A stretch of 64,000 bases of DNA from an uncultured Hyphomicrobiales bacterium (GCA_964465945.1 CAYXMM010000005.1:30703-94702), one strand, 5' to 3'; shown: positions 7,934 to 60,238, counted from the stretch's first letter. The notes: a model not told the origin generated them from the letters alone. Numbers and translations: made by a program.

Positions 7934-8005
7934 AATTAAAAATGGTCCCTTCGTCTAGCGGTTAGGACATCGCCCTTTCACGGCGGTAACACGGGTTCGA
8001 GTCCC
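7934..8005 (+). tRNA. tRNA-Glu (anticodon UUC); its 3' end is the prophage attachment site
   Basis: Cloverleaf folded by hand: acceptor ggtccct/agggatc (one G-U pair), D stem gtct/ggac, anticodon stem tcgcc/ggcgg with loop cTTTCAc (U33, anticodon TTC, A37), T arm acggg-ttcgagt-cccgt, discriminator A; no encoded CCA. Confidence 0.85.
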
Positions 8006-8010
8006 GTAGG
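7992..8010. repeat. attL core: 19-bp direct repeat tcccgtagggatcacttaa (tRNA-Glu 3' end)
   Basis: Identical 19-mer at 60220-60238; the left copy overlaps the tRNA T-arm/acceptor 3' half. Confidence 0.8.
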
Positions 8011-8014
8011 GATC

Positions 8015-8046
8015 ACTTAATAAGAAGCGAGTTATTTATTTAACTC
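8015..8046 (+). terminator. Intrinsic terminator supplied by the prophage just after the reconstituted tRNA-Glu end
   Basis: aagcgagtt-atttattt-aactcgctt followed by tttttt; an A-run precedes it on the other strand, so it could also end the leftward tape-measure operon. Confidence 0.5.
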
Positions 8047-8119
8047 GCTTTTTTTATTTATAGTTATAAGATTAATTTATTGTTAATATTATTTTTTAAG
8101 TGTCCGTTTTGGTGTCTTT

Positions 8120-11100
8120 TTACGTTCTTGCCCGTTTTTTACCACTTTTTGATATTCGTTTTATTGATTTGTGAATTGACTCATCACTAATGCTAAAATC
8201 TAAATTATTCACAACATCAATCAATTTGTCGAACTTCTTACTAATATTATTGTTTGACGTTTGAATAGCTTTATTTATTATTGATTCAAATTGAGAACTT
8301 GTAAGAATGTCATTTGGTAAAATAGAATGGTTATTATTACCTAATTGGACGCTATTTAAGTTAGTCGGTGTTGAATTATTTATATATGAATTGTATTTAC
8401 TTAATACAACCGATTCTATTTCTTTATACTCTCTTGTTGGAATTTTATTATCAATATATTCTGATTTAGTTTTAGAATATGTGTTGTAGTTAGTAATATA
8501 GTCATTGAAATTCTCAAATGTAAAACTTTCATTTTTAAAGATAGTCTTAATTTCATTTAAGTTCGACATTGCATTACTTAGTTTCTCAGATATAACTGAA
8601 TTGTTATATAAATGCTGCTTGTTTATACTATATTCTTCAATTATATAACGTTTAATGTCTTCGTTAATAATACCACTATTAATCTCTTTAATATTGATTT
8701 TAGTTTTAGCATAAACTTCATCTATTAAATTAAAGAAGTTCCCATTGACCTTATTAAAGTTATTTAACAATTCATTATATACTTCAACATTTTCTGTAGA
8801 TTTATGTTTGGAGAGCTCATACATACTTTGATTAATAATAATTTCATTTAGTTTTTTAATGTCTTTAGTGCTTGTAAACTCTTTAATTTGATTTACTTCT
8901 TTGATAAATGATTCAACAACATTTTTCATTATTAATCTCATTTGGTCATCTCTTAATATCCATTCAGAATTACTACCTGGTCGTGCTTCGGAAGCATCAC
9001 CGACAATAGCAAGAGTCGGCTTATCAACTCTTCCACCAGTTGAGAATGATAATAATCCAGATAAAACTGGATTTAACAACGCATTTACACCTGCATTCAC
9101 AATTCCAGTAATTGCAGGAATTAACAATAATGTAGCAATTCCACCCATAGCGGCGTTTATTTTTAATTGCCCTAATATTAATGTAGTAACAGCAGAAGTG
9201 GCTAGCTGTTTTAATGCACCAGCAACAACAGAGAATGCTTTACGCCAAGGTTCTTTCATTTCTTCTTCGCTACCCGTAATAGAAGAGAAAATTTCAGTAA
9301 TATTGCCTTGTAAATTTGAAGCTAAAAAGGTTATAACATCTCCTTTTTCTTTGATTTTACCTTCAACTCCTGACATTTTAGCATTTAATTCATCTAATTT
9401 TTTTGTATCTCCTGTTTTTTCTGCGCGTATTTGTTCTAATGCTAATTCTTCTGCTAATTGCTTTCTTTCAAGGTCCAATTTATCCATATCGGCTTTACGC
9501 TGTGAGAATAATTGCTCGCCTTTGCTTGTCTCTTGAATTACTTGTAATTTTTTCTGATGTTCTAGTTCGAGTGCTTCTTTTTTTTCGTTAAATAATCCTT
9601 GCGATATAAGTTCTGCTTCTTTTAATCTTTCTAATTCTTTAGAATTTTCTTCATATTCTTTAGTAATACCATTTGTAGCAATACTCGATGTAGTATTTGT
9701 AATTATTTCACGGAGTTTTAACTCGTTATCAATCCTTTTTTCGACTTCTTCAAGCTCTTTTTCGTGCTTAGCTTTTAATATATTATAATCTTCATCGTAA
9801 ATAGTTGAATATTGAGAATGAATATTCTTTTTAATTTCAAATTGCTTATTTTCAGATTCAATGACTTCAGTCTCTAATTTTTTAAGCTCAGCTTGTTGCT
9901 CGTATGTTATTTTACCACTGATTTTTAATTCATTCAATCCTTCAATTTTGTCTTTTTTGCTTTGAATTTCGCTCGCAATGTTGCTTAAATCATTCTCAAG
10001 TGCATTTGCTAATTCTAATCTCGGTTTTAATCCAATTTCAACTTGATATTCTAAGCTTTTTCTATTTTGCTCTTCAACTTTCTTTTTTATTTCTGATTCT
10101 TCAAGTTTTAAAGTTGAATTTAATTGAACTACCCCAACATTTTCATTTGCAATTTTATTATTAATCTCATCTACTTTAGCTTTAACTTCACTTTGTTCTT
10201 CTTTTTTTACTTTTATGCCTATTTTAATTGTCCCATCTGAATTTTCAATAATTTTATAATTTTCCAAAATACTTTTTTTCTCTGCTTCTAACGACTGCAA
10301 TTGTCTTGTTTTTAGTATTAAATCGTCCTCAGTAGTTTTCTTGCGACCTTCCAAAGCAATATTCATTTCTTGTTGGATTTTAAATTGTTCCAATGAATTT
10401 TTATTAATAACTTCATCTTGTTTAATGGCTTTGGTTGCAATTTGATATGCAGTCTCAGACTTTTCTTTCTTTTCAGCAAATAAATCTTCTTGTGATTTTT
10501 TCGTTTTTTCGAGTGTTTTTAATTGAGAGTTGGCTTCTTTAGTCAGTTTATATTGAGCTTGATATTCTGCTTCTGCTTCTTTAATAACTTTTTTATTACC
10601 ACTTGCTTTCGCTTCTCTACGCTTTCGTTCAAGTCCAGTAAGTTCCTGTAATTGTGAATTAAATTTATCGCCAGCTGCTTTTAAATCCTCACTAAAAGCA
10701 TCACCTAATGATTTAACTGCGGACTCTGTCCCTTGAACTGCTTCCTTAGATTTATTAATAGCACCTACCAATTTCTCAACTTCTTCAATCGGTTTGCCAG
10801 TAGCTGTTGCTATCTTCTTAAAAACTTCTTCGGTAGATAAACCCGCACTTGACCATTTCGCCGCCATTCCAGCAATATCATTCAAATAGCCATCATTTTT
10901 TCCTTTTAATGTATCATATTCTTGTTGTAAATCACTTGTATCAGCTCCCATTTTAACTTTTTCGCTAATTTTAGCTTGGAGCTCACCCATCTTAACTTCA
11001 TTCTCTTTGTATTTCTCACCCTCTTTCTCAATAGATTCTATATATTTTGCCTGATTAGAATCGAGTTTAGCACTATTAAGTTCTTTTTGCTTTTGTGCTG

Positions 11101-13687
11101 ATTCTTGTATTTTATCATCTAATATTTGATAGGTTTTAACTAACTCACCATTTTCACCCTTTACAACCCCTGTAGCTTGAACTGCGTCAGGAGCGATTGA
11201 TTTTATTTTATCACCGATAGCCGAACGTTGAATTTCTGTTTCTGCATTTTTATAAGATGCAACAAGTTCATCTAATGACTCTGCACCTTTTAGTTTCTCA
11301 TTTACTTTTGTTGATTCTGAAATTACATCACCTAGATTTTTATCTCGAATCACTTTGCCAGCATCGTCCATCATTTTAGCAACATCTTCTTCGGTTTTAC
11401 CAGTCCCTTTTAAACTTGCTTGGATTTCAATTTTTTGCTCTTTGGTTAATTGACTAACATCAGTTACTCCACTTATAGCTAAATCATTTATAACTTTACT
11501 AAGTTTTTCATTTGCTTGCTTGGATTTTTCAGTAAGTTCTTTTTCTCTTGTGTTAGTTAAATCTTGCGCTTGTTTTGCTAATGCTTGACGAGTTTCAGGA
11601 GGTATTTCTTCAAACATAGGATTATTCCAAAGTGCAGTATTAAATGCAAGCAAAGCTCTTTTTGCTTCTTCTGGATTAGCTGCGTCTTTGATTGAATTAA
11701 CATAATCTTCAACTACCTTAGTTTGTTTAATATTATTTAGTCCAAGTAGGTCATCTATCTCTTCGAGAACATTTTCTTTCAATGAATCCGCAGAAACTTC
11801 AGTCTCTAATTCAACCCTTTTAATTGTCGCTACCTTTGCTTGTTGGTCTAAATCTGACATGCTTTTTTGTAACTCTTTTATCTTTGTGCTATTTTTTTCT
11901 GATTCTTGATTTAAAGACTTCATATTCTCTTCAAACGATTTAGTCGAACTTATTGCTCCTGGATAAACTTCATTTAATTGAGTTATGGTATCTTTCAATT
12001 TCTTTTGTTCGTTTGCTGTTAAGCTCGATTTTGAACCAAGTTTTTCATATTGGTCGATTAATGCTTGTTTAGACTTGATTGAATTTTGTTCTGCTTCATT
12101 AACTTTCTTTTGACCTGCAATCATCTCTTCATCGGCTTTTGCACTTGCAAGTTTCTCTTCGTTTGTTTCAACGAGATAATCACCTAAAAAGTATAATGCA
12201 GTTCCAACCGCAGCTATTCCTGCTATAACTAAGCCTACTGGACCTAACGCAGCTGCCCACATTGCTGAAAAGCTTATACTTGTAGCACCAGAAGTTGCCG
12301 ATGTAACAATTAACGAAGGTATTAACTTACTAATAATACTTTTTGAAAAATCTGCAACTGCCTTTCCAGAACCTGATGGAATAATCGCTGCGACTCCACC
12401 AAGACCAGCTAATGCAGGACCAATTTGATTTAACGATTGAACTGCTGTAATTGCCCCATTACCAAGAGAACTGAAAGCACTTGAAAATACTGCTTGAACT
12501 TTATTAGTAATAATCTTACTTTGAACTTCAATCCCAGCAGAAGCGACTCCGAAAGCATAATCCGTAGAACCTATTGAACCCGCCACTGCTTCAAAATCTT
12601 CTGCTGCCATTTGTGCGTTTTTACCAGAAAGTAACATTACAGCACCCGCTGCTTCGACCGAAGAGAATACCTGCGTTGCTGATTTACCTGTCATTTTTAA
12701 AGCTTCACCAACTTTTCTCATTGATTCTTGCAAACCTTCCCTTTTAAGAGAATCTAACGATACTCCTGCTTTTTGTAATATTGGAGCTAATGTTGCTCCT
12801 GGTTTTGCAAGTTCAACTAATGCTGACCTTATTTGTGTTGTTGCTTGTGCAGTTGGTGTTCCTTGTTTAGTCATTGTTGCTATTGCTGCTGATACTTGGT
12901 CGAAACTAACACCAAAAGCAGCTGCTGTTGGAATTACGTTAGCAAGTGAAGCGTTTAACTCTGGTATTGTTGTTTTACCAACATTTACTGCTCCAAAAAA
13001 TAAATCAGCAACTTCGGCAGAACGATCTGCTTCTATTCCGTAAGCATTCATTACTGAGGTTAAACCATTGATTGCATCGCCTGTTGAGGTTAAACCAGCA
13101 GTAGCTAATTTAGACGCTGTTTCAACGAATTTCATTCCACCTGCTACATCAGCAACTCCATCTTTTACTTTAATTGTTCCTGCTGAAATTGCATCATAAA
13201 CCCCACCAGCAATATCCGCAGCTGAATCTGGAACTGTTTGAGATAAATCTAACGCAGCGTCTGCAAATTCTTCAAAGTTTTGAACGCCAAGTGTCCCAAT
13301 ATTTTTAACTTGTTTATCTAGGTCCGCAAATGGCTGAGTGAAAGCACCTAAAGCTGAAGAAAAAGTAGTAAGACTTTGAGTGATTTGATTAAATTGAAAT
13401 GCTTTACCTAATAAGCTAGCTTTACCTTCTGCATTTGTTATAGATTTAGTAAAAGTATCAGTATCAGAACTTGTTTTCTTTACTCCATCAGATATTTGTT
13501 CATATTTTTGCCTAACTTTATCTAGTTCTTTAGCCATTGAATCTCCATCAATCAAATCTAAATTATCACCTAATGCGCCAAGTTTAGACTTCATTTCACG
13601 GATAATAACATTTAACACTTCGGCTAATTTCTGAGGGTTTAACTCAGGATTAAACTGCATTCCAATACTAAAATTCAAATCTGCCAT
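8120..13687 (-). CDS. Tail tape measure protein (1855 aa)
   Basis: Very large; N-terminal Ala/Gly-rich hydrophobic segments followed by a long coiled-coil-rich K/E region, typical TMP architecture; Asn-rich 350-aa C-terminal extension. Confidence 0.75.
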   Translation of the reverse strand: MADLNFSIGMQFNPELNPQKLAEVLNVIIREMKSKLGALGDNLDLIDGDSMAKELDKVRQKYEQISDGVKKTSSDTDTFTKSITNAEGKASLLGKAFQFNQITQSLTTFSSALGAFTQPFADLDKQVKNIGTLGVQNFEEFADAALDLSQTVPDSAADIAGGVYDAISAGTIKVKDGVADVAGGMKFVETASKLATAGLTSTGDAINGLTSVMNAYGIEADRSAEVADLFFGAVNVGKTTIPELNASLANVIPTAAAFGVSFDQVSAAIATMTKQGTPTAQATTQIRSALVELAKPGATLAPILQKAGVSLDSLKREGLQESMRKVGEALKMTGKSATQVFSSVEAAGAVMLLSGKNAQMAAEDFEAVAGSIGSTDYAFGVASAGIEVQSKIITNKVQAVFSSAFSSLGNGAITAVQSLNQIGPALAGLGGVAAIIPSGSGKAVADFSKSIISKLIPSLIVTSATSGATSISFSAMWAAALGPVGLVIAGIAAVGTALYFLGDYLVETNEEKLASAKADEEMIAGQKKVNEAEQNSIKSKQALIDQYEKLGSKSSLTANEQKKLKDTITQLNEVYPGAISSTKSFEENMKSLNQESEKNSTKIKELQKSMSDLDQQAKVATIKRVELETEVSADSLKENVLEEIDDLLGLNNIKQTKVVEDYVNSIKDAANPEEAKRALLAFNTALWNNPMFEEIPPETRQALAKQAQDLTNTREKELTEKSKQANEKLSKVINDLAISGVTDVSQLTKEQKIEIQASLKGTGKTEEDVAKMMDDAGKVIRDKNLGDVISESTKVNEKLKGAESLDELVASYKNAETEIQRSAIGDKIKSIAPDAVQATGVVKGENGELVKTYQILDDKIQESAQKQKELNSAKLDSNQAKYIESIEKEGEKYKENEVKMGELQAKISEKVKMGADTSDLQQEYDTLKGKNDGYLNDIAGMAAKWSSAGLSTEEVFKKIATATGKPIEEVEKLVGAINKSKEAVQGTESAVKSLGDAFSEDLKAAGDKFNSQLQELTGLERKRREAKASGNKKVIKEAEAEYQAQYKLTKEANSQLKTLEKTKKSQEDLFAEKKEKSETAYQIATKAIKQDEVINKNSLEQFKIQQEMNIALEGRKKTTEDDLILKTRQLQSLEAEKKSILENYKIIENSDGTIKIGIKVKKEEQSEVKAKVDEINNKIANENVGVVQLNSTLKLEESEIKKKVEEQNRKSLEYQVEIGLKPRLELANALENDLSNIASEIQSKKDKIEGLNELKISGKITYEQQAELKKLETEVIESENKQFEIKKNIHSQYSTIYDEDYNILKAKHEKELEEVEKRIDNELKLREIITNTTSSIATNGITKEYEENSKELERLKEAELISQGLFNEKKEALELEHQKKLQVIQETSKGEQLFSQRKADMDKLDLERKQLAEELALEQIRAEKTGDTKKLDELNAKMSGVEGKIKEKGDVITFLASNLQGNITEIFSSITGSEEEMKEPWRKAFSVVAGALKQLATSAVTTLILGQLKINAAMGGIATLLLIPAITGIVNAGVNALLNPVLSGLLSFSTGGRVDKPTLAIVGDASEARPGSNSEWILRDDQMRLIMKNVVESFIKEVNQIKEFTSTKDIKKLNEIIINQSMYELSKHKSTENVEVYNELLNNFNKVNGNFFNLIDEVYAKTKINIKEINSGIINEDIKRYIIEEYSINKQHLYNNSVISEKLSNAMSNLNEIKTIFKNESFTFENFNDYITNYNTYSKTKSEYIDNKIPTREYKEIESVVLSKYNSYINNSTPTNLNSVQLGNNNHSILPNDILTSSQFESIINKAIQTSNNNISKKFDKLIDVVNNLDFSISDESIHKSIKRISKSGKKRART

Positions 13688-13839
13688 AAGCCATTACTTC
13701 ATTTTATTAATTAAATTATTTATCTTAAACTCAAAACACTCTATGAAATCGTTAATTTCAAGTTCTAATATTGCATTTCTGCTTAACGGGTCATCATCTG
13801 GGACTAAGAACCATATAATTGGATTATTCTTAATATCTC

Positions 13840-14379
13840 TTACTTCGTCTCGGAAATATTTGAGGGTATAGAATTTTTCCCTTTCGTCCGAGTAATATCT
13901 GATTGGTTCATCGCCATCATCTTGAAGACTTGCGACCTTTCTATTTCGCTCAATCCGTTTAATTGCTTCATTAAGTCGCCTAATCCCTTCGTTAATTCGA
14001 TGTTGATAAGACCCGTATGATAAAAAAAATCCTGTCGAATCTCCATAAGCTTGATAAAATTATCTTTACCTGTAATCTCGTCTAAGAAATCAAATGCAGG
14101 TGGTTTTTGCTCTAAATATTTCTCAAAATCTTCGCTGTCTTTCTTAAATACATTCAAAATTGCTGCGAATGCGTATTTTTGGACTTGTCTTTGTGTAATA
14201 GTTACTACTTCATCTGGTCTAACAGGTAAATTTTCCTCCATCGCTAAGTCGAGTTTGAAGTATTTTATTCCTGCATAGATTTGATTTGCAGTTAGTCTAT
14301 CGAAATTGTATTGATATTTTTTGCCGTTACATTCAAAATCGACAATTAAAAATTTTGGTTGTTGAGTTTCTTCACTCAT
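13840..14379 (-). CDS. Hypothetical tail-associated protein (possible tail assembly chaperone position)
   Basis: 179-aa ORF immediately upstream of the tape measure gene. Confidence 0.3.
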   Translation of the reverse strand: MSEETQQPKFLIVDFECNGKKYQYNFDRLTANQIYAGIKYFKLDLAMEENLPVRPDEVVTITQRQVQKYAFAAILNVFKKDSEDFEKYLEQKPPAFDFLDEITGKDNFIKLMEIRQDFFYHTGLINIELTKGLGDLMKQLNGLSEIERSQVFKMMAMNQSDITRTKGKNSIPSNISETK

Positions 14380-14391
14380 TGCTACCCCTTT

Positions 14392-14886
14392 TTATGAAAA
14401 GTTATTGAAAATTATATTTATATCTGTTATTAAGTCAATTGAAGCAATTACATTAACCTTTATTTCAGTTTCTAAGAATTCATCACTTGTTTTTACTGAT
14501 AAGTTTTCTATTGAAATATTTAAAATTGTTGGGCTAGTTGCAACGAAATTTAATGCGTGTGAAAGGTATCCAGATTCTGTATTTCCAAAGCCAATCCCTA
14601 TTGTATCTACAATTAAAGACCTGCAATGTAATAAGAACTTATCGTAATAATTTTGTACTAATTGGACAGGAGTTACTTCTACAATAATCTCATAAGCAAT
14701 AACATTAAAGCCTCCTAAATCATTAGGTTCTCTTATCTCGTTAAACTCAAAATTAGACCCCTTTTTAAGGTTATCAAATTGGTAAAGATGAGTGTCGCTA
14801 CCATCAATAAATTTTATTGCAAGTGATGTAATTGGTGATAATTTCCATTTTGTATAATCATTTAAGAAATAACTGTAAATCGCCAT
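14392..14886 (-). CDS. Hypothetical tail-associated protein
   Basis: 164-aa ORF in the tail gene run, tightly packed. Confidence 0.3.
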   Translation of the reverse strand: MAIYSYFLNDYTKWKLSPITSLAIKFIDGSDTHLYQFDNLKKGSNFEFNEIREPNDLGGFNVIAYEIIVEVTPVQLVQNYYDKFLLHCRSLIVDTIGIGFGNTESGYLSHALNFVATSPTILNISIENLSVKTSDEFLETEIKVNVIASIDLITDINIIFNNFS

Positions 14887-14887
14887 C

Positions 14888-15259
14888 TTAGTCCTTATAT
14901 TTTGATTTTAAGGTAAATTCACATCTCGGAAGTAATTTGGATTTAGTCGGGAAACTTATATCTTCGTCATCGGTCATTTCAACTTCAAAAAAAGTTGTAT
15001 TGTCGAATGATAATTTTTTAAACCCTGAATTAAAAAAACTCTTTAAATAACTCATTTTAGCAGTTTGGTATAATACATTCGCAGATATTATTATATTATA
15101 AACTTTCCTTTTTGATTTAAGGTGAGATACAATAGTGCCATTTAGAGTATTAGCTACTTCTCGGTCTCTTTCGTATACTTCAATACAGGACATTACACTG
15201 AAATTATCAGCAGTTTCAGTCGTCCAGTTATCGTTGCTATATTTAAGGTAAATATTCAT
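14888..15259 (-). CDS. Hypothetical tail-associated protein
   Basis: 123 aa; start codon overlaps the stop of the upstream 823-aa gene (ATGA-type junction). Confidence 0.3.
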   Translation of the reverse strand: MNIYLKYSNDNWTTETADNFSVMSCIEVYERDREVANTLNGTIVSHLKSKRKVYNIIISANVLYQTAKMSYLKSFFNSGFKKLSFDNTTFFEVEMTDDEDISFPTKSKLLPRCEFTLKSKYKD

Positions 15260-17730
15260 TAGTCGTAATAAAAATGTTCGTTATCAAATAGTTGAAGGGT
15301 ATTACTATTAATTAATTTACCAATAACCTTATTTACACAATTAAGAGTGCTTGCCTTTCGTTTTAATCTATTCGCAGATATATTAATAAGTGACCCGTCT
15401 ACTTTTAAATACAATGTGTCGCCAGCAGTAAATGGAATATCACTTAATATATATTTGCCAGGTGCCTTTATTACCTTAATTAAATTATCCCCACCATCTT
15501 CAAGAGCTAATCCGTAATAAGTATCAAGTTTAGAATGGTCTACAATTGTAACTAACTTATTGTCAGTATTTACAGCAAGTGCTGAATATGCTAAACAGGC
15601 CCCTACAATTTCTTTATATTCAACTGAATCATCATATACATAAGTGTCTTCTTCTCCTAAAAACTCATCGTCATTTTTAGGAATAGACGGATTTTGAATT
15701 TCACTGAATAAAGTATTTTGTTTTAACTTTAAGTTTACTTCTGGTTTAGAGAAATCAATTTCAATAGAATTTATTACATAATCAACACTATTTAGTGTTA
15801 TTTTTTTGCCTAATTTTAGTAATTTTAAACTTGGATTTGAGCCATCAGAATTTTCGCTGAAAGCATTCCAATAAGGGATTGATAAATCTACATCTTGTTT
15901 TGAGAATTTTATATATCTATCTTTAGAAACAGAAAGATAATCTTCTAATAAATCAAATCCGCATTCTGTATTATCTATTTTAACAGCCATTCTACGAATT
16001 GGAGTGAAATAAGCATCTGGTTCGTAAGTTTCTTTAGAAGCAATTTTTACATAAAGTCCAGTATGAACTGAACGGGTATCTGCCATCCAACCATCACCTT
16101 TCATTTGATTCATATTCACAGTGATTGGAGGGTTTGTATCATAAGTATATTTATGAGTTATCTTAATATTATGTGGCAATAAATCGCCATTCCTACAAGG
16201 TGGTCGTAAATAAGTTAAACTTAATTGTGGCGGAATTAACATCGTTCCTCTTTCTGGCTTCATCATAGCCAAAGTAGGACTTATGGACAATAGTAAAGAC
16301 TTGCCAGAGCTTTTATCTTCAGTATATTTATTTTTTCTTGGGGACCCAGATGTTATATGACTTGTAACTTTATAATTTGAATTATCAAAAGCTTTTGAAA
16401 CTCCATATTTATCACGTCCATAAATAATTGCCTTGCTACCATCTTTTCCGAAATGCTCTTCACCAACTCCATAGAAACTCTCTGTTTTATATTCGTCTTT
16501 ATTATTGCTTCCTTGTTCTATGCTTAAATCTAATTTATACTTAGATGCATCTTTAAAATATAAAGCACCAAACGAAGCAAGATAGTCGCCATTTATAAAG
16601 TCTATGTAAATGTCTTCATTAACTTTATCAATTCGGAGAGATAATAGGAAATTAAAATTTTCAGCAAAGGAATAAAAAAAATCTGTAACACTCGAGTCAT
16701 CTCCACCAACCCTAAAGCTGTTTGCTTGACTATCATTATACTCACTTGGATTTGATAAGTTTCTAAAATATTTATAATCCACAAACACTGTTTCATTCTC
16801 ATCTTCTGAAACAGCGTCGGGGTCGAGATAATAATTCTTATAATCAGTTCCATCATCTAAATTGTGATAAACTGGGACATCGGGTTTTGAAGCTGGAGGT
16901 CGACTGTTCCCAGTAACTCCGTTTGAATTATTTTGCCTACCATCTACCCATAATTGCTCTCCCCAGTAAGGATCGACAACACTTGATACTCTCCATCTTG
17001 CTGGTGCATATTTACCTGTAAATTTTACTCTATTGAAATGAACGTTATAAGAGCCACCACCAGCGTTTAAGATGACTTCAATTCTATCACCAATTGCTCG
17101 CATTAATTTATTTAAACTAACTAAATCACAAACATAAGTGTTGAGTTCTTCTGTAACTAAACCGACTGTTTTTGAGTAATTTCTCCACGCTTGTCTATCG
17201 GCTACATTTGCAGTCTTCCAGTCGTTTGGAATATCATCTAATACATCTTTAATTTTAATATCATCTAATAGATTTTCAACTTCTGGTGCGGCGCTATATT
17301 TATAAGTTTTTACAATATCTGAAGACGAGGCATATTCGTCTCTATCCCAATTCACTGCTTCGCTTTGAATATCTGGGTCGATAATTCCAGTAAACAAAAC
17401 ATCACTGCCAACTACTGGGTCGTTAGGATTAAATAAAATCGCACAATAAACTTTAGTAGTTATTGCTGAATTGATAAGATTAAGACAATTTTGTTCGTCC
17501 GTATTTTTTACGAAATAATCGGCTGACATTATGCTTAAATCATCTTGAACTAAGCCACCATTATCATCTTTAAAGTCTTTTTTAAGTTTTTCTAATATAA
17601 AAATATCAACTTCAATAGCAGTAGATTCGTCAACTAATGTATTATAATCATCTGACACAACGAACTTAATAGTATTACTACCAAATCCATCTTCATTTGT
17701 ATAAGTATATGTTTGTTGATATTTTGCCAT
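15259..17730 (-). CDS. Large virion structural protein (823 aa; tail sheath-like or other tail protein)
   Basis: Large ORF following the tube-like gene and preceding the tape measure; no recognisable enzymatic motif. Confidence 0.4.
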   Translation of the reverse strand: MAKYQQTYTYTNEDGFGSNTIKFVVSDDYNTLVDESTAIEVDIFILEKLKKDFKDDNGGLVQDDLSIMSADYFVKNTDEQNCLNLINSAITTKVYCAILFNPNDPVVGSDVLFTGIIDPDIQSEAVNWDRDEYASSSDIVKTYKYSAAPEVENLLDDIKIKDVLDDIPNDWKTANVADRQAWRNYSKTVGLVTEELNTYVCDLVSLNKLMRAIGDRIEVILNAGGGSYNVHFNRVKFTGKYAPARWRVSSVVDPYWGEQLWVDGRQNNSNGVTGNSRPPASKPDVPVYHNLDDGTDYKNYYLDPDAVSEDENETVFVDYKYFRNLSNPSEYNDSQANSFRVGGDDSSVTDFFYSFAENFNFLLSLRIDKVNEDIYIDFINGDYLASFGALYFKDASKYKLDLSIEQGSNNKDEYKTESFYGVGEEHFGKDGSKAIIYGRDKYGVSKAFDNSNYKVTSHITSGSPRKNKYTEDKSSGKSLLLSISPTLAMMKPERGTMLIPPQLSLTYLRPPCRNGDLLPHNIKITHKYTYDTNPPITVNMNQMKGDGWMADTRSVHTGLYVKIASKETYEPDAYFTPIRRMAVKIDNTECGFDLLEDYLSVSKDRYIKFSKQDVDLSIPYWNAFSENSDGSNPSLKLLKLGKKITLNSVDYVINSIEIDFSKPEVNLKLKQNTLFSEIQNPSIPKNDDEFLGEEDTYVYDDSVEYKEIVGACLAYSALAVNTDNKLVTIVDHSKLDTYYGLALEDGGDNLIKVIKAPGKYILSDIPFTAGDTLYLKVDGSLINISANRLKRKASTLNCVNKVIGKLINSNTLQLFDNEHFYYD

Positions 17731-17785
17731 TTATTAGATAATTCTTAAAATGTGGAACTAAAACCGATATTATACTCACATCCTA

Positions 17786-17821
17786 AAAACGTGGTATAAA
17801 AGGGGTGTTTTATCCACGTTC
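17786..17821 (-). terminator. Imperfect inverted repeat (putative attenuator/terminator) between the tube-like gene and the 823-aa gene
   Basis: aaaacgtggtataaaa-ggggtg-ttttatccacgtt; on the coding (minus) strand the stem is followed by TTT. Confidence 0.3.
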
Positions 17822-17853
17822 TCAGAATGCAAGGCAATAATTAATAACTATTA

Positions 17854-18510
17854 TTAGGTAGTTACAATTTTAGCAAAATTACCTGTTAATAATTTTGTTA
17901 AGTCTCCTGCTACAATAGCAGTGATGTCAACAGCATCGCCTATTACTGGTGTAATATTTGAGGTAGTTACAGCAGTGTTATACTCTGCAAAAGTCAGAGT
18001 CACCCCTGAATCTACTGTGATTGGCTTGCCAACAAATTCATTTTCAATCTTCATCATTCCATTTTCAGAAGTGAATTCAATATCGCCAGACAATACTGCA
18101 ACTAAGTGGTATTCATAAACGATTGTTTCAGTAATATCTTCAAGAAATACAATAACAGCACTTACTCTACCGATTAAATCTTCAATTGCTTGTTGTTGTG
18201 CTGGGCTTATATATGCCTTAAATTTAATTTTTGGTTGACTTGTGCCACCTGATAACACTTCTGTGTTTGTTAATGCATCGAATATTTTTGCATTTTTAGC
18301 GTAACGAAGTGTAATATCACCGCCAATTTCATTAGAGTGATATTCAACCGAAGCTTCGTCTTTACCAGGGAATGTTACGCCCGATACGACTACATTAACT
18401 AAGTCGATTACAGTTCCGAACCCAGTTACTGGGGCAACTTTATTGTTTGCATCTGTTGTTGTGAAAGGGGCAATTCTCATAAACCCTTTAAATCCTTTTC
18501 CTAATGCCAT
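17854..18510 (-). CDS. Putative major tail (tube) protein
   Basis: 218 aa, Thr/Val/Gly-rich beta-type composition, positioned before the large tail protein. Confidence 0.35.
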   Translation of the reverse strand: MALGKGFKGFMRIAPFTTTDANNKVAPVTGFGTVIDLVNVVVSGVTFPGKDEASVEYHSNEIGGDITLRYAKNAKIFDALTNTEVLSGGTSQPKIKFKAYISPAQQQAIEDLIGRVSAVIVFLEDITETIVYEYHLVAVLSGDIEFTSENGMMKIENEFVGKPITVDSGVTLTFAEYNTAVTTSNITPVIGDAVDITAIVAGDLTKLLTGNFAKIVTT

Positions 18511-18534
18511 TTTACTTCTCCTTTTTAATAAAAA

Positions 18535-18972
18535 TTATATTTTACATTTTACGCCATATAATAGGGCTTCCCATTTTGAGTTTCTGGTGAACCCATCTTG
18601 TATTTCTATTACAATTTCTTCTGTGGTATTATCCGCCCACCAGTCATAAGTAACTGGCGACATCGCCCAACTTGTTTCTGCATAATCAGTTCCTCTAACA
18701 TTCTTTAATTGTACTGTATTGTTAGTATTATCTCTTCTGAATATTGCACTACCAGTAAATGATACGACTTCACGATTTGTAGTATTCATTCCAACAAGTA
18801 ACATATTAAACATAAGAACTGAATCAGCTTCCATATTTATATTATTACCGTCTGGCAATTTTATTTTTACAAAACCACCACCGACAATAGTCGCAGATAG
18901 ATTCTGTAAGAACATTTTCTCATTTGCTCTTGTGTTCCCGTCGGCTCTATATAACAAACCTTCAAAATTCAT
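18535..18972 (-). CDS. Hypothetical virion protein
   Basis: 145-aa ORF in the structural run. Confidence 0.3.
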   Translation of the reverse strand: MNFEGLLYRADGNTRANEKMFLQNLSATIVGGGFVKIKLPDGNNINMEADSVLMFNMLLVGMNTTNREVVSFTGSAIFRRDNTNNTVQLKNVRGTDYAETSWAMSPVTYDWWADNTTEEIVIEIQDGFTRNSKWEALLYGVKCKI

Positions 18973-19328
18973 TAGCTAATGATAGCATCTATTGACAAAT
19001 CTATTGAAGTAACGCTATTTAGAGTAACTTCAACATTAAATCCTGCTACAATAATTCCGCTCATATCAATCGTCAGAGCATCATTAACATTACTTGCAGT
19101 ATTAATAACCGCAGTATGTTCGAGAGTTTTTACATTCTCTAATGTAGAATATACCTTAATTGTAGCATCAGCAGTTCCTACAACATTCTGCCATTGGACC
19201 TGCAAAGCCCAGTTATTAATAGGGTTTCTATCTTGGAACTCGTCAAGATTATCAAAGAACTCTTTATTTCCATTCACCCATTTTGAAGAGAAATCATCTG
19301 TTAATGTTGAATTAGCAAGTATAATCAT
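18972..19328 (-). CDS. Hypothetical virion protein
   Basis: 118-aa ORF, start overlaps stop of the upstream gene. Confidence 0.3.
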   Translation of the reverse strand: MIILANSTLTDDFSSKWVNGNKEFFDNLDEFQDRNPINNWALQVQWQNVVGTADATIKVYSTLENVKTLEHTAVINTASNVNDALTIDMSGIIVAGFNVEVTLNSVTSIDLSIDAIIS

Positions 19329-19345
19329 TTTAACCTCTTATTTAG

Positions 19346-48965: not shown

Positions 48966-49236
48966 AATCTGACCCCTCTAATCTTGCAATTTCTTGCTCA
49001 GAATACATAAAAAACTTTCCCCATTTTTGACATTCTTTCAAAAGTCCTTTCCGTCTTCGATTATTTAATGTCCCTATCGACACACCTAATCTACTCGCAG
49101 CATCTTCGACTTTTAGATATTTAGTATTATTTCTATGATTAACTAGTTCATATCCTTGTTTAACTCCAAGGGCTGTCGCATCCGCTATTAATTGCTTAAT
49201 TTCGTCTTTTGATAAAACTACTATATCACCAAGCAT
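48955..49236 (-). CDS. Helix-turn-helix DNA-binding protein (excisionase/MerR-like)
   Basis: 93 aa; EDAASRLGVSIGTLNNRRRKG is an HTH. Confidence 0.4.
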   Translation of the reverse strand: MLGDIVVLSKDEIKQLIADATALGVKQGYELVNHRNNTKYLKVEDAASRLGVSIGTLNNRRRKGLLKECQKWGKFFMYSEQEIARLEGSDYEI

Positions 49237-52293: not shown

Positions 52294-53274
52294 TTATTTA
52301 ATTAACAACACTCTTACTTGTGTCTGTTTTTCATACTTCACATACTCGTCTGGATTGTCTTCTTTGAATGCTTTTGAATCAAAAGAATTTCTATTTTGGA
52401 CCTTGTAAGTCGCTAAAATTAATTCGTCTTTAGTTTTAATTCCTTCTTTATCGTAGATAGCCATTTTTATTTTATCTTCCAAAAATGACTTGTTTTTATC
52501 AAGCTCTTTAATCCTGTCCTTAATTTCAGTCAATTGAGTATATGCTTCTAATAAATCATCATCTGCAACTGTAAAATCACCTACAACTTTATAATCTATA
52601 AATTTATTTAATTCCTCTGGGTTAGTTGGCGGTGGCATTACTCCTTTTGAAAGGTAGTGATCAACAAAATTATTTACCTTTTGCAGTGCAATTTCAATTA
52701 ATTTCTCGTTATACTCAATCGGATACCATTCAATATGACCACCGAATTTGAATTGGACTGTTGCAAAATATGCCTTTCTAAATCCAGTTACATACATATA
52801 CCATTGAACTTGCATATAATAATGTGGATTAGTCTTAATAAACTCTTCTTTGGATTTAAAAAAATTATTAGTAACTAATTTACACTCAACGATTGCTGGT
52901 GAGCCGTCATAGTCGATTGTGAAGTAATCCAAAGAGCCGTGCGCCACTCCACGCTTTAAGATTGTAACTTTTTCACCTTGAAAATCTACATCAACAAATC
53001 GAACTTCATCATCTTCAATCATAGCTCTTAATTCTTTAGTGCTTTCGGCTGGTGAGAATACAGGCAAAGAGGTTGCTTGTGAAAATAATTTAGCAATAGC
53101 GGGCTCAAATGCTTTACCTAATCTCATTGCATCATTTTCTTCAACTTTATATCCGTTAACTTTTTCATTATAAACATCAAATTGAGTTTTATAAGGATTA
53201 ACTCCGCAGATAGCAGCTACATCTGTTCCTCCGATTGATTTTTTACGCTCAGAGATAAAGGTTGCGGTACTCAT
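52294..53274 (-). CDS. YqaJ-type viral recombinase exonuclease (lambda-Exo fold)
   Basis: 326 aa; N-terminal SIGGTDVAAICGVNPYKTQFDVY matches the YqaJ signature. Confidence 0.65.
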   Translation of the reverse strand: MSTATFISERKKSIGGTDVAAICGVNPYKTQFDVYNEKVNGYKVEENDAMRLGKAFEPAIAKLFSQATSLPVFSPAESTKELRAMIEDDEVRFVDVDFQGEKVTILKRGVAHGSLDYFTIDYDGSPAIVECKLVTNNFFKSKEEFIKTNPHYYMQVQWYMYVTGFRKAYFATVQFKFGGHIEWYPIEYNEKLIEIALQKVNNFVDHYLSKGVMPPPTNPEELNKFIDYKVVGDFTVADDDLLEAYTQLTEIKDRIKELDKNKSFLEDKIKMAIYDKEGIKTKDELILATYKVQNRNSFDSKAFKEDNPDEYVKYEKQTQVRVLLIK

Positions 53275-54203
53275 ACTTTAGCATCCTCATTTATCATATT
53301 TAAAATGTTATTATTGTCAGCTGCTTGGATTTCACCTGTTTCAATATCTACATTATAGTCGTCTTCATATTCAGTGTCTCTTTGATACTCTTCAATAGTA
53401 AATTCTTTGACTGGCTCTGTAAGTTCTCTTCTTATTACTTGCGATTCAGGTAGTAATAGTCTTTGTTTATCTTCAGTCGATAAAGGTAGATAAGTAGCTA
53501 AAGCTCTAACCGCTTTCCCTTTTGCCATTTCAGCATAATGCGTATCCCAGATTCCAGATGGTGTTTCACCACTTTTTTGAGTTTTAGATAATTTCCGTCT
53601 TTTCTCAATCTGATTTTTAGTTAGAACAGCAAAAGTAAAAGAACCGTCTTTAAATCTTGCCACAGCATAAGAGTATTTTAAACTTTTATGGTCGTCATTT
53701 AAAAAAGCAGGTTTGTGTTTAAGGGAACGATTTAAACCGTATTCTATCTCAAATTCATCACCTTCATAAACAACTTCAGCATAAATATCAGCGATACTAT
53801 TAGACCTTCTTGCCAATTCTAAATAACCTTTATAGCCAATTTGGAATTGAACTTCTTTTTGACCTTTTATAAAATATGGCACATAATAACAATGCCCTAA
53901 TGCTGGTGCTGGCTCTAATCCAAGAATAGCCGTTTGTTGCAATGCTCCAAATATCGATTGCAAAGAACATTCTTTAAGCTCTGGGTTTTTTTCAAATATA
54001 GTCGCAACCATCGTAACGAATCTATCTGAACTCATTGTATCCGTAAATGACTTTTTCAAAGTGTTAGTCATTCCTGAAACTACTTCTGAGATTTGAGTTG
54101 ATTTAAACCCTTTTAATGAGTTTTGCTTACTTGCGATTCCCATAGCAGACATCTTTTTTTGTTCCATTTGTATAGCACTATTTGTTTTTGCTAATTCAGA
54201 CAT
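53271..54203 (-). CDS. RecT-family single-strand annealing protein
   Basis: 310 aa; …HCYYVPYFIKGQKEVQFQIGYKGYLELARRS… and W..HY.EMAKGKAVRAL segments resemble RecT; translationally coupled to the YqaJ exonuclease. Confidence 0.55.
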   Translation of the reverse strand: MSELAKTNSAIQMEQKKMSAMGIASKQNSLKGFKSTQISEVVSGMTNTLKKSFTDTMSSDRFVTMVATIFEKNPELKECSLQSIFGALQQTAILGLEPAPALGHCYYVPYFIKGQKEVQFQIGYKGYLELARRSNSIADIYAEVVYEGDEFEIEYGLNRSLKHKPAFLNDDHKSLKYSYAVARFKDGSFTFAVLTKNQIEKRRKLSKTQKSGETPSGIWDTHYAEMAKGKAVRALATYLPLSTEDKQRLLLPESQVIRRELTEPVKEFTIEEYQRDTEYEDDYNVDIETGEIQAADNNNILNMINEDAKV

Positions 54204-55515: not shown

Positions 55516-56256
55516 TTGTATAAACCTTCTATTAACAATAGGTTGAAAGTGAAAAAAAATTTCATACAAGAGCAATTAAGAGAAAATCTTAGATACATTT
55601 TTAAAAAAACTTCTGCGTCAATGAACAAAATGCATGAAAATAAAGTTGTTTCTAAAGGGTATATGTCGAAATATTTAAAAGATGAGAATATGTTTTTAAG
55701 TAGTGATAAAATTGAGAGCATATCTAATTATTTAGGTATTCAAATAAATGACTTAATTAATAAAGATTTATCGAAATCTGCCGACCCACTTAATATAAGT
55801 AATAATACAATTCCTATAGAATTAAAAAAACAAAAACCAGAAATCCAATTCATCGAACAAAAAAACGGGCAAGTAACAGAAATTCCATTATATGAAAGCA
55901 CCGTATCGGCTGGAATTCCGAAAGAGATATTTGATTATCCACCAATGAAGATAGCAGTAGCACCAATTAAACAAGGTGCGTTTGCAGTGAAAGTTAGTGG
56001 TGATTCGATGATAGATTTTAAAATTGATGATGGTGACACATTGGTGGTATTCCCTACGACTGAATTAAAATTCAATCAATTAGTAGTAGCAAAATGTGGA
56101 GATGCTTACACTGTTAAAAAATTAGAAAAGAGAGATGATGATTATTTGTTAGTGCCTGGCAATAAAAAGTATGAGCCAGTAATAATAGATGATACAGACA
56201 AGTTTGAAATAATCGGCTATGTGCTTTATATTATGAAAAAGCCGTTTTTAAGTTAA
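55516..56256 (+). CDS. CI-like repressor: N-terminal XRE HTH plus C-terminal S24 (LexA-like) autopeptidase
   Basis: 246 aa; VKVSGDSMID (Ser nucleophile) and VVAKCGDAYTVKKL (Lys) of S24; N-terminal HTH. Confidence 0.7.
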   Translation: MYKPSINNRLKVKKNFIQEQLRENLRYIFKKTSASMNKMHENKVVSKGYMSKYLKDENMFLSSDKIESISNYLGIQINDLINKDLSKSADPLNISNNTIPIELKKQKPEIQFIEQKNGQVTEIPLYESTVSAGIPKEIFDYPPMKIAVAPIKQGAFAVKVSGDSMIDFKIDDGDTLVVFPTTELKFNQLVVAKCGDAYTVKKLEKRDDDYLLVPGNKKYEPVIIDDTDKFEIIGYVLYIMKKPFLS

Positions 56257-57243: not shown

Positions 57244-58029
57244 ATGCGAAAAACATTAATAATATTGTTAATTTCTTTAACATTTATTTCCTGCTCTGAA
57301 AGCAACACAACAGAGCCAGAAGATAAACAAACTACTTATTCCTATTTAGAACTTCCAGACACAACACTCGGTCAAATAGTCCACCATCATAATTATACTT
57401 TATCTTATGCTGAGGAATACGAACAAGCATATTGGGTGGCTTATGAATTAGTATCAACAGAACTTGTTAAGAATTACGAACGAACAGACGATTTTATTAT
57501 AGACCCTGCCGTAATAACTGGCAGTGCAGAAGCAAGCGACTACAAAGGAAGCGGTTACGATAGGGGTCATTTAATGCCAGCAGCAGTATGCACTTGGGAT
57601 TCTACTGCAATGGCTGAAAGTTTCTTTTACTCAAATGTATCCCCTCAAAATGCTTCGTTTAATCGTGGTGTTTGGTCTCGACTCGAAGATTTAGAAAGAG
57701 AACTTGTTACTAAATATGATACAGTTTGGGTGGTAGTAACTCCGATATTTAATAATGTAACAAAATATATAGGTGCAAACGGGGTAGCAGTTCCAAGCGA
57801 TTACGGACGTGCCTTTTTAGTCAATGATAACGGAGTTTATAAAGGAATTGCATTTATACTTAGTAACGAAGCCAAGTCGTCCGACTACGATATAATCGAA
57901 AATGCTTCATATACAATAGACGCATTAGAAAAAAGAATTGGTATTGATTTATTCTTTCAACTTGACAATCAAATTGAAGATATTTTAGAAAGTAAAATCA
58001 GTAAAGAGATGTTTGAGGGGATTAAGTGA
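57244..58029 (+). CDS. Secreted lipoprotein DNA/RNA non-specific endonuclease (Endonuclease_NS, DRGH motif)
   Basis: 261 aa; lipobox LTFISC; SGYDRGHLMPAA active-site motif of Serratia/NucA-type nucleases. Confidence 0.75.
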   Translation: MRKTLIILLISLTFISCSESNTTEPEDKQTTYSYLELPDTTLGQIVHHHNYTLSYAEEYEQAYWVAYELVSTELVKNYERTDDFIIDPAVITGSAEASDYKGSGYDRGHLMPAAVCTWDSTAMAESFFYSNVSPQNASFNRGVWSRLEDLERELVTKYDTVWVVVTPIFNNVTKYIGANGVAVPSDYGRAFLVNDNGVYKGIAFILSNEAKSSDYDIIENASYTIDALEKRIGIDLFFQLDNQIEDILESKISKEMFEGIK

Positions 58030-58219
58030 ATAACAAATATATGAATCTTTAAAAAATTATGGTGAAACACCCGATACTAATAAACAAAGATTAAAAAATT
58101 ATTTATTTTTCCAAATATTTTAGAATATTTATTGAAATTATTCTATTCTTAATTCCATATAAAAATTACAATTTTCATTATACAAATACTGACGGAGTAA
58201 TTGAATATTATAAAAGTAT

Positions 58220-58294
58220 CGTCCTTTATTCACTCCGCACTTAAACGAATAGGTAAAGGACGAGATTAGGCACGCTATTTTAAAGGGACTGGGT
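58220..58294 (+). pseudogene. Degraded 3' fragment of a MuG-like virion morphogenesis gene (homologous to 33361-33435)
   Basis: ~75 bp aligning with the end of ORF 33001-33438 (38-bp core 35/38 identical); translates RPLFTPHLNE* versus RPLFTSLLNEETKDEIKHAILKGLV*. Confidence 0.4.
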
Positions 58295-58911
58295 GAGAGA
58301 GATTTATATCTTCCTTTTTATTCAAAGAAGTGTTTAAATATTTCATATCTTTGAATGATTGCGGATAATATTATATTTATTATAATGCTTAAAGATAAAA
58401 TTAAAGTAGCAAATTTGATTTTATTAAAAACTACCTTTTTCCGTTCTTCCCAATGTATATAATTTTTATTTATTAGAAAAAGTATAATACTAATAAAAAT
58501 TATTAATATAACTGATATTGTAAAAAAGCCACTAATAGTATTATTACCTTTAGTTTGTGTGATAAATGCAGTGAGAATAGCAATTAATGCTGTGAAAACT
58601 GTTACAATTTCTATTGTCTTATTCTCAAATTTATTTATTTTTGCATCAAGGTTTTCTTTAATATTATTCTTTTCTTTTTCTAAATAATATTTACTTTTAA
58701 ACTCATTTATTTTCCTTTTATATCCTTTTGATTTTAATTTTTCAATTTCAAAACTTACTGGAATAAAAATCTTAATTACGTGTGTAAATCCAAGAATGGT
58801 TTATATTTTTGAAGAAATGTAAATTATTTAAATATTTTTAAAAAAAACTTTAAACGTGCTTGTAAGTCGTTTATAATATAGAAAAAAATTTTATTTTTTT
58901 AAGAAAAAAAA

Positions 58912-60084
58912 TTATTCCAAAGCACTCCTTACAGCATTTACTGCTTCACTTTGAGTAATTTTAACATATTCATCGAATGAACGTCTATTACGATGACCTG
59001 TTATTTTCATAATTTGTTCTGGAAGTAATCCTTTACGGAGTAATCTTGTTATAAAAGTTCGACGTGCTGTGTGGCTGGATATTAATTCATACTTTGGTTT
59101 AATTGTATCAACTCTTTTGCCACCTCTCCAAGAAGTTACGAGTGTAGGAGCATCTATTCCAGCAAGTTTACAGACTTCTTTAATATATTGATTGTATTTA
59201 ACATCAGAAATTACTGGCAATACATTCTGATATTTATCAAATATCGTTAAAATTGATGAAGAAATAGGTATTCTAATTATTTCTGCAGTTTTTATTGTTA
59301 TTGTATGTAGCTCTTTACGTTTAATATTGATATTTTCAGGTTTTAAATTTAGTAAGTCAGATATTCGTAGTCCAGTATAACATTGAATTAAAAATAAATC
59401 TTTTACTTTTTGTAGTCGATGGTTTAATTCAACGTTTTTAATCTCCGTAATTTCGTCTTCATCTAAAGCAATTAATGTAGAATAATAATTATTTAACTCA
59501 ACTTTAAAAGAGTTTAAATAGTTAATATTATAGTTAGGATTTTGTCTCGAATATTCTCTTATTATTGTTTTAAATCTCTTCATTATTCTAACGATGTAAG
59601 AATTACTATACTCATTTCGCATTAGATATTCTTTAAAATCAATTAATACGTTAAGATTTATATTGTTGAAATCAAGATTAGGATTAAATTTATATATTAA
59701 ATTGCTAAAAACCGAATATGTAACTTGTGTCTTCTCATTTGCATATTTTGACTTATACTTGTTAATAAAATCAATAACTTTCGAATTAGAACTCTTCTTG
59801 GAGTTATAATTGCAAATAATATCTTCAATAGATGTAATATTAAAATTATTATAATTATTTATTATTAAATACTCTTGAATTAGTTCTGACAAATTCTTTA
59901 TTTTTGTATTTAAGAGAAAAGAATTCTTATCTATTGATTTTACAATTTGTTTTTTTGCGTCCCAATTTTTAGATTTAACAGAAATATTTGTCGTTATTCT
60001 GTATCTATGATTTAGATGTCGTAAGTCAAGATAAATTCTACTTGTTTCTTTTGTCCTATCTTTTAAATATAATCTGAATTTCAT
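58912..60084 (-). CDS. Tyrosine site-specific integrase
   Basis: 390 aa; C-terminal catalytic domain with …R… HTARRTF … GHRNRRSFDEYVKI (R-H-R-Y pattern); adjacent to attR. Confidence 0.85.
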   Translation of the reverse strand: MKFRLYLKDRTKETSRIYLDLRHLNHRYRITTNISVKSKNWDAKKQIVKSIDKNSFLLNTKIKNLSELIQEYLIINNYNNFNITSIEDIICNYNSKKSSNSKVIDFINKYKSKYANEKTQVTYSVFSNLIYKFNPNLDFNNINLNVLIDFKEYLMRNEYSNSYIVRIMKRFKTIIREYSRQNPNYNINYLNSFKVELNNYYSTLIALDEDEITEIKNVELNHRLQKVKDLFLIQCYTGLRISDLLNLKPENINIKRKELHTITIKTAEIIRIPISSSILTIFDKYQNVLPVISDVKYNQYIKEVCKLAGIDAPTLVTSWRGGKRVDTIKPKYELISSHTARRTFITRLLRKGLLPEQIMKITGHRNRRSFDEYVKITQSEAVNAVRSALE

Positions 60085-60219
60085 AAGTGCCTTTTTTAGT
60101 GTCTTTATAAAGCAAAATTATGTATTATTCAAATTACATACAAATATAAAATAAAGATATAATTATGTTATATTGCTAATAAATGCGTTTTAAATATAAT
60201 TCAAATATAAATATTGTAA

Positions 60220-60238
60220 TCCCGTAGGGATCACTTAA
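60220..60238. repeat. attR core: second copy of tcccgtagggatcacttaa
   Basis: Identical to 7992-8010. Confidence 0.8.

Follow-up and report, generated by a model that had tools for sequence, protein, structure and literature searches.

How is transcription of a tRNA gene ended once a prophage has come to lie between the gene and its terminator? The question is raised by a stretch of 64,000 nt from an uncultured bacterium (GCA_964465945.1, CAYXMM010000005.1:30703–94702), hereafter the window, in which a tRNA-Glu gene is followed by 52 kb of phage DNA. An initial annotation of this DNA had proposed that a prophage occupies the tRNA gene and that phage and host each contribute a terminator to the junctions. 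The repeats that bound the element, its gene content, a precise empty site and the polarity of two terminator-like hairpins were observed directly. The whole account set out below, in which a temperate tailed phage would have been inserted into tRNA-Glu by a tyrosine integrase and would have replaced the terminator of the gene with one of its own, is in our view highly likely to hold.

Boundaries of the prophage in the tRNA-Glu gene

An intact tRNA-Glu gene (anticodon UUC, CCA not encoded) was found by ARAGORN at positions 7944–8016 of the plus strand. It scored 61.4 bits against Rfam RF00005, and its minimum free energy fold contained the cloverleaf together with a downstream hairpin. The 19-mer TCCCGTAGGGATCACTTAA is present in the window in two exact copies on the plus strand, one overlapping the end of this gene (attL core, 8002–8020) and one at 60220–60238 (attR core). 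No third copy was found in the window even when 3 mismatches were allowed. As a chance baseline, 100 dinucleotide-preserving shuffles were run and contained no copy, so that none is expected by chance. The exact direct repeats at both ends had been recognized in the initial annotation, which placed the right end correctly at 60238 but set the left start at 7992, 10 nt below the real position of 8002. The left repeat had also been described as the 3′ half of the tRNA, which is wrong: it comprises only the last 15 nt of the gene, the 3′-terminal fifth (the last T-loop base, the 3′ strand of the T-stem, the 3′ strand of the acceptor stem and the discriminator), followed by 4 nt of the trailer. 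The right copy is a tRNA 3′ fragment only. The two cores are perfectly identical, and the element that they bound is 52,218 bp long with one copy of the core counted. Modules for virion formation, packaging, replication and lysogeny control were found between the repeats, in agreement with the proposal of a prophage in tRNA-Glu. Because this set of phage modules is complete, the 52.2-kb interval is almost certainly a prophage with the att sites as assigned here.

Contigs with the same locus were found in several public samples by exact look-up of the GNAT-family protein encoded by the host to the left of the tRNA gene. One of them, L086 (ERZ27321090 NODE_16582, from another sample), carries an unoccupied site, the order being the GNAT gene, tRNA-Glu, the core and a host hairpin; the sequence read after the core is ATCAAGCCACAAATAATATATTGTGGCTTTTTTTATTTCC.... 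Two alignments connect this contig to the window, one running from position 8020 to 5754 with 99.5% identity and the other from 60744 to 60220 with 97.9% identity. They overlap by exactly the 19-bp core, and both flanks of the window are collinear with the contig. Judged from these alignments L086 is the unoccupied attB, and since the overlap is exactly the core, the prophage ends are fixed to within the identity block. In this prophage-free sequence, a comparison of the kind suggested in the initial annotation, tRNA-Glu joins the right flank of the window directly at the predicted junction. For the locus, the junction strings AATATTGTAATCCCGTAGGGATCACTTAATAAGAAGCG (attP) and GGTTCGAGTCCCGTAGGGATCACTTAAATCAAGCC (attB) were built. 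This host or phage is represented in the runs or assemblies SRR32005135, SRR25419749, SRR25419750, SRR12898368, SRR10580904, ERZ781405, ERZ781406 and ERZ27321090.

The attL junction of the window was also present in three public contigs (L081, L085 and L090) and the attR junction in two, L089 and L091, the latter with an integrase that is 96% identical; the junction contigs other than the window come from five samples. The GNAT protein is identical on contigs with occupied and with empty sites. In L081 a diverged variant of the phage resides at the same site, and because its tape measure gene is only 83–89% identical to that of the window while the host flank is 99.7% identical, variants of this phage use one and the same site. 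Three more contigs, L082–L084, end at the core and were considered as possible evidence of mixed alleles in one sample; simple k-mer branching does not account for where they break, and no claim is based on them.

Terminator-like hairpins at the two junctions

A simple terminator scan of positions 7300–8700 returned a single site, 8022–8053, on the plus strand only. This hairpin, with a run of seven T residues extending to about position 8055, lies in the orientation of the tRNA just inside attL. Scanning of positions 59800–61200 returned five sites, the first of which was 60242–60267 on the plus strand; here, just outside attR, the run of seven T residues extends to about position 60273. Both elements had been noted in the initial annotation. 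The coordinates given there for the outer one (60242–60273) were exact, while those for the inner one (8015–8046) were 7 nt off. When folded as RNA, the inner hairpin reached −16.3 kcal/mol (z = −6.3) and the outer one −13.5 kcal/mol (z = −5.6), and in neither case was any of 200 shuffles as stable. The tails are polar: the T-tail score of the inner hairpin was 5.51 on the plus strand (TTTTTTTATTT) and 2.99 on the minus strand (TTCTTATT), and the corresponding scores of the outer hairpin were 4.99 and 1.75. With the 15-mers of the window as a reference (95th percentile 3.05, 99.9th percentile 4.95), both plus-strand scores are above the 99.9th percentile.

The inner hairpin is missing at the empty site and is identical in all four attL copies, and is therefore phage DNA. 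At the empty site a hairpin directly follows the tRNA, and this identifies the hairpin now found on the attR side as the native downstream element of tRNA-Glu. That it is the displaced original terminator, as the initial annotation had suspected, is hardly in doubt. The phage hairpin begins one base past the core, and an identical 13-mer, GCTTTTTTTATTT, closes both hairpins, 26 nt past the core in the phage element and 25 nt past it in the host element, so the position of the native terminator is reproduced to within 1–2 nt.

These data suggest the following scheme. A temperate tailed phage would have been integrated by its own tyrosine integrase into the 3′ end of tRNA-Glu(UUC), with recombination taking place inside the 19-bp identity block common to attP and attB. 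The final 15 nt of the tRNA are part of the phage block and would be supplied by the phage copy of the core, so that an intact tRNA gene is rebuilt at attL and a 15-nt fragment is left at attR. As the crossover would lie upstream of the terminator of the tRNA gene, this terminator would end up at attR, at a distance of 52 kb, and would no longer serve the tRNA. In the lysogen, the phage hairpin and its U7 tract would end tRNA-Glu transcription instead. The gene next to the junction, which encodes the tail tape measure protein, points towards the tRNA, so that tRNA transcription, if left unterminated, would cross the late operon of the phage in the antisense direction; by stopping transcripts from the tRNA promoter the hairpin would insulate the prophage. 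The claim of the initial annotation that the phage hairpin restores a terminator to the tRNA agrees with its phage origin and with its strong polarity in the direction of the tRNA, and the hairpin, predicted to terminate transcription, probably does act as the tRNA-Glu terminator in the lysogen.

The same hairpin could have been, in the first place, a terminator of the phage late operon, whose location beside the tRNA is a by-product rather than an adaptation. The stop codon of the tape measure gene is 99 nt from the attL core and 67 nt beyond the hairpin, which is thus downstream of the gene on the strand of the operon; in the circular phage the integrase gene (int) follows on the same strand, and the hairpin may act weakly as a late-operon terminator that parts the two co-oriented genes. 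The minus-strand RNA folds well (−13.6 kcal/mol), and its tail score is near the 95th percentile of the reference. However, the uninterrupted run of seven T residues is on the strand of the tRNA, which is the only strand flagged by the scan and has a tail score nearly twice as high. Furthermore, no recognized plus-strand gene reads into the hairpin in the circular phage, and the spacing between hairpin and core mirrors that of the host terminator that was replaced. We consider an origin as a mere late-operon terminator possible though unlikely. The two roles are compatible.

Separation of a small-RNA gene from its terminator has been described for other mobile elements. ICEKp1 and related integrative and conjugative elements (ICEs), which use tRNA-asn/tRNA-gly, move the Rho-independent terminator of the tRNA to their far end, as was shown by comparison with element-free strains (PMC13023037). 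Their int gene, which has the orientation of the tRNA and is located ~160–200 bp downstream of it, is transcribed by read-through from the tRNA, damped only by stem-loops in the 5′ untranslated region (PMC13023037). The locus studied here resembles these elements in that integration at the tRNA 3′ end displaces the terminator to the far end. It differs in that int is found at the other end and a hairpin with a U7 tract directly follows the rebuilt tRNA, a design that points to insulation and not to the use of read-through. In S. pyogenes M1 the speA prophage inserts between two terminators of ssrA, the gene for tmRNA (PMC9951164). The strength of the remaining terminator sets the level of transcription entering that prophage, and the phenotype of read-through is toxin expression (PMC9951164). 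There, too, a prophage downstream of a small-RNA gene parts the gene from a native terminator, but the host keeps T1 of its two terminators and the phage supplies none, whereas here the only terminator would be supplied by the phage. The locus is thus a clear case of replacement of a displaced tRNA terminator by the inserted element, in contrast to the ICEs, which exploit its loss to transcribe int, and the two cases together could be used to probe how mobile elements handle transcription from strong tRNA promoters.

One may go further and view the phage hairpin as a selected 'terminator replacement' module, given its near-native position and the last 13 nt that it shares with the native one. 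The tRNA end and the terminator in attP would then fit descent from a captured bacterial tRNA-Glu locus, and the hairpin would be needed in the lysogen for normal output of tRNA-Glu and for shielding of the convergent late operon from read-through. This extension of the account is speculative and rather doubtful; if true, such a module would do the reverse of the ICEKp1-type elements, which use read-through to drive int.

The attachment site, the integrase and the mobility of the prophage

The int gene (58912–60084, minus strand) encodes a tyrosine integrase of the Bacteroidota type that matches phrog_1 (5.5e-27) and contains the domains Arm-DNA-bind_5 (PF17293, 28.7 bits with a cut-off of 22.6), SAM_5 (PF13102) and a catalytic domain (PF00589, 55.4 bits). 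As had been stated in the initial annotation, the gene is at the attR end and not beside the intact tRNA; 135 bp separate it from the attR core. This position is not unusual for the integrase clade, since homologues in contigs L092 and L095 show the same layout. The gene for the L092 homologue (54% identical) adjoins a tRNA-3′-like fragment and the gene for the L095 homologue (35% identical) adjoins GGGTTCAAATCCCTCTCTGACCA; in both contigs a hairpin and a T-run follow. Neither contig yielded an intact tRNA. Elements with integrase homologues include, for example, those in GCA_026129425.1 and GCA_965661945.1.

Joining of positions 60085–60238 to 8021–8119 yields a rebuilt attP of 253 bp, which is the whole gap between the start codon of int and the stop codon of the tape measure gene. 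Its elements are ordered as arm motif, core, terminator hairpin and second arm motif. The arm motif is 22 nt long (AAGTGYC..TTTT..GTGTCTTT) and occurs twice in the 64 kb, in direct orientation, once at each outer edge of attP. The copy on the P arm, AAGTGCCTTTTTTAGTGTCTTT (60085–60106, plus strand), abuts the int start codon and is conserved in the L091 integrase variant, and the copy on the P′ arm, AAGTGTCCGTTTTGGTGTCTTT (8098–8119, plus strand), abuts the tape measure stop codon. Because the integrase has an arm-DNA-binding domain, the two copies are candidate arm-type sites, at which the integrase is predicted to bind. The core region in attP and attR forms an imperfect palindrome, GTAATCCC-GTA-GGGATCAC, picked up on the minus strand by the terminator scan, and may mark core-type binding sites.

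The first half of the P′ arm motif, the 11-mer AAGTGTCCGTT (8098–8108), is also present in the host flank at 60390–60400, ~150 nt past attR, where the empty-site and variant contigs read AAGTGCCCGTT. Its occurrence there is probably due to chance; the rough expectation is ~0.03, and there is no extended similarity around it. An interpretation of the 700-bp right flank as an older, decayed copy of the element was dropped, since beyond the core only the 13-mer, this 11-mer and AT-rich noise are shared. Repeated AGTTTTGAC motifs were seen upstream of int in two contigs from Kapabacteria/Ignavibacteria metagenome-assembled genomes (MAGs), at 2380–2460 of L095 and 2190–2400 of L096. They are likely arm-type sites, with a sequence unlike the motif of the phage studied here.

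Phages that carry the 3′ end of a tRNA in attP and rebuild the gene upon integration are textbook cases, and tyrosine-integrase elements that use tRNA genes include P4, P22, HP1 and mycobacteriophage L5. The locus shares with this group the tRNA 3′ end in attP, short direct repeats, int next to attP and a recoverable empty site. Its identity block, however, is short and begins at the last base of the T-loop, which places the crossover in the 3′ strand of the T-stem, the acceptor strand or the trailer and excludes the anticodon loop and the T-loop. In contrast to the common layout of tRNA-integrated islands, int lies beside the tRNA fragment at attR and not beside the intact tRNA, and in contrast to the P4/P22/HP1/L5 type the host is Ignavibacteria/Kapabacteria-like and the phage has no close relative in databases. 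The arrangement of attP has a parallel in Cluster K1 mycobacteriophages, in which a stem-loop terminator separates the attP core from an arm-type integrase site and int is adjacent (PMC3203893). The order of core, hairpin and P′ motif is the same here, although the phages, the host phylum and the target gene are unrelated and the arm sites of the present phage are predicted ones.

Several points weigh against the account as a whole. Termination at either hairpin rests on sequence prediction. The phage hairpin could also serve the late operon weakly on the other strand, and its purpose may thus not be the tRNA alone. All attL copies found are near-identical, so that conservation of the hairpin is seen among close copies only, and the pattern of the 22-nt arm motif was derived after both sequences had been viewed. 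No attP junction or excised form was detected in IMG/VR or JGI metagenomes queried with the core and the attL-type junction, and contigs encoding the integrase or the tape measure protein showed only attR or attL, never attP. No lysis, tail-fibre or baseplate genes were recognized among the prophage open reading frames (ORFs), and about half of these ORFs match nothing, so that the genome may be incomplete.

An element of which attP is found nowhere, in which lysis and tail-fibre genes are not recognized and which has a pseudogene fragment and an 880-bp ORF-free gap beside int might be a defective, fixed remnant, its att repeats and terminators being historical scars. Yet the att cores are still perfectly identical, and the ORFs for integrase, repressor, terminase, portal, capsid and tape measure protein are of full length. 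Hosts that are nearly identical (99.5% flank identity) include both occupied and empty alleles, and the same site also houses a diverged variant; both observations point to recent mobility. Unrecognized ORFs are to be expected for a phage without database relatives, and their large number fits such a phage: megablast of both prophage halves against 50,697 GenBank phage records gave no match, and IMG/VR contained no close relative of the integrase or of TerL. A fixed remnant is therefore quite improbable, and we lean towards a prophage that is still competent for excision. Least probable is that the phage hairpin has an architectural role in attP, as a cruciform, bending site or protein-binding palindrome that the intasome requires, and is no terminator: the minimal 253-bp attP does contain it, with the core on one side and the candidate P′ arm site on the other, but a GC-cored stem followed directly by seven T residues on one strand is what characterizes an intrinsic terminator, the host sequence that was replaced has the same design at the same offset, and the comparable element in mycobacteriophage attP has also been read as a terminator (PMC3203893).

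Integration of a temperate phage with replacement of the tRNA terminator thus remains the preferred account. Displacement of terminators by elements that integrate into tRNA genes has been published before, as have stem-loop terminators next to attP cores, and since each mechanistic piece has a precedent in the literature, current understanding is unchanged. What the locus does is combine known features in a new phage and a host that has been poorly sampled, and the natural empty site serves as a very clean control. It provides a fully delimited set of attL, attR and attB for a temperate phage of this host group, and one could try the compact 253-bp attP, with its core of 19 bp, as a tool for integration in the phylum.

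Host flanks and gene content of the prophage

The GNAT acetyltransferase gene of the left flank (7322–7855, minus strand; Pfam Acetyltransf_3/4/1) is accompanied by host genes for a Cys/Met pyridoxal phosphate-dependent enzyme, an OmpA-VWA protein and a permease. In the right flank there is a gene for a methylthiotransferase of the MiaB/RimO family (60957–62348, minus strand; Pfam UPF0004, Radical_SAM and TRAM). The nearest homologues of the latter protein are 65–73% identical and come from MAGs labelled Chlorobiota, Ignavibacteriae or Kapaibacterium, and the host appears to be an Ignavibacteria/Kapabacteria-like bacterium. No tRNA was present near the MiaB-like gene in the best GTDB representative relatives (65–73% identical); synteny is thus lost at that distance, and this comparison is silent on the empty site. 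Exact-protein look-up of the MiaB-like protein returned no record. An Rfam search of the whole window and of the ORF-free right flank returned two tRNAs only.

The late operon of the phage is transcribed from the minus strand and spans positions 27314 down to 8120. It begins with genes for a ClpP-like head maturation protease (26130–27314; Pfam CLP_protease) and the major head protein (25190–26137); the matches listed for this head pair are phrog_1005 (1.6e-78) and phrog_94 (3.8e-46). The head-tail and tail block that follows (13840–24948) consists mostly of unrecognized ORFs, one of which, upstream of the tape measure gene, encodes 823 aa (15259–17730), and includes genes for a scaffold-like protein (24601–24948) and a head-tail adaptor (24170–24601). 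The last gene of the operon encodes the tape measure protein of 1855 aa (8120–13687), which matches PHROG families with E-values down to 2.6e-37 and Pfam PhageMin_Tail at 1.3e-29. It ends the operon beside attL with no distal-tail, fibre or lysis genes after it, unlike in most siphoviruses. Positions 3363–7113 of L081 align with 10732–14448 of the window, covering the tape measure gene and the region upstream of it with 83–89% identity, and the variant protein is 1865 aa long. As far as these alignments go, variation in this phage population has a hot spot in the tape measure, the tail-length protein.

Packaging genes are on the plus strand. A gene for a fusion of a ParB-like N-terminal domain and an N6/N4 DNA methyltransferase (27478–28905) is located directly upstream of those for the small terminase (28892–29440), the large terminase (29437–30759), a Mu-like portal fused to a MuF domain (30761–33001) and a Neck1/tail completion protein (33001–33438). 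The head module resembles that of phages of the BcepMu/phiE255 type: Portal_Mu, a Mu F-like domain and Mu-like protease and scaffold signatures were recognized, and the portal is 31–34% identical to the portals of these phages. In contrast to them, no transposase match was obtained among the scanned ORFs, and integration would be site-specific, by a tyrosine integrase and with a defined att core. A transposable Mu-like phage, for which a DDE transposase, random insertion and short target duplications would be expected, was rejected, since resemblance to Mu is confined to the head module and the insertion is site-specific, its 19-bp core being part of a tRNA locus.

The early and replication block (33450–54985, minus strand) contains genes for a RecT protein (53271–54203), a RecE-like protein (52294–53274), an excisionase-like helix-turn-helix (HTH) protein with a weak match (48955–49236), an SNF2-type helicase (42840–44300), an HNH nuclease (41337–42170), a replication initiator (40248–41336) and a DnaB helicase (38740–40251), as well as late-activator-like and resolvase-like genes. 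Diverging from the early operon is the gene for a CI/LexA-like repressor with an HTH and an S24 peptidase-like C-terminus (55516–56256, plus strand; phrog_4 1.9e-30, UmuD-like 9.4e-20). Between the repressor gene and int there is a cargo gene for a non-specific DNA/RNA endonuclease (57244–58029, plus strand; Pfam Endonuclease_NS 1.2e-42). The protein has a lipoprotein-type signal peptide, MRKTLIILLISLTFISC..., and may be a secreted nuclease, its gene being an accessory (moron) gene.

A gene cluster at 34287–37566 on the minus strand encodes a phrog_3364 protein (34287–35279), two gamma-glutamyl cyclotransferase-like (GGCT) proteins (35442–35777 and 35768–36211) and an amidoligase-like protein (36637–37566), and has the appearance of a cassette for ligation/modification of small molecules or peptides. 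Inside the minus-strand ORF 46944–47639 there are four to five tandem 45-nt repeats (47036–47260), T-rich on the plus strand, which would encode a repetitive Lys/Glu-rich segment. Between two ORFs of the tail region ARAGORN identified a phage tRNA with a CAU anticodon (19345–19418, minus strand; Rfam 59.9 bits). Inspection by eye showed an A-C mismatch at positions 1/72 and an anticodon stem with two G-C pairs and U-G only; an initiator, an elongator Met and an Ile2-type tRNA are the candidates. A 146-aa ORF in the same structural region (19381–19821, minus strand) has a match (1.1e-23) to a PHROG whose annotation is enoyl-CoA hydratase/carnitine racemase-like and may encode a protein of the crotonase/ClpP fold rather than a metabolic enzyme. 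Beside int, positions 58030–58911 form an interval of 880 bp without any ORF of at least 80 aa. It includes a 74-nt fragment (58219–58292) that is 84% identical to the 3′ end of the Neck1 gene of the phage (33360–33433), contains an in-frame stop and is probably a recombination scar from another phage.

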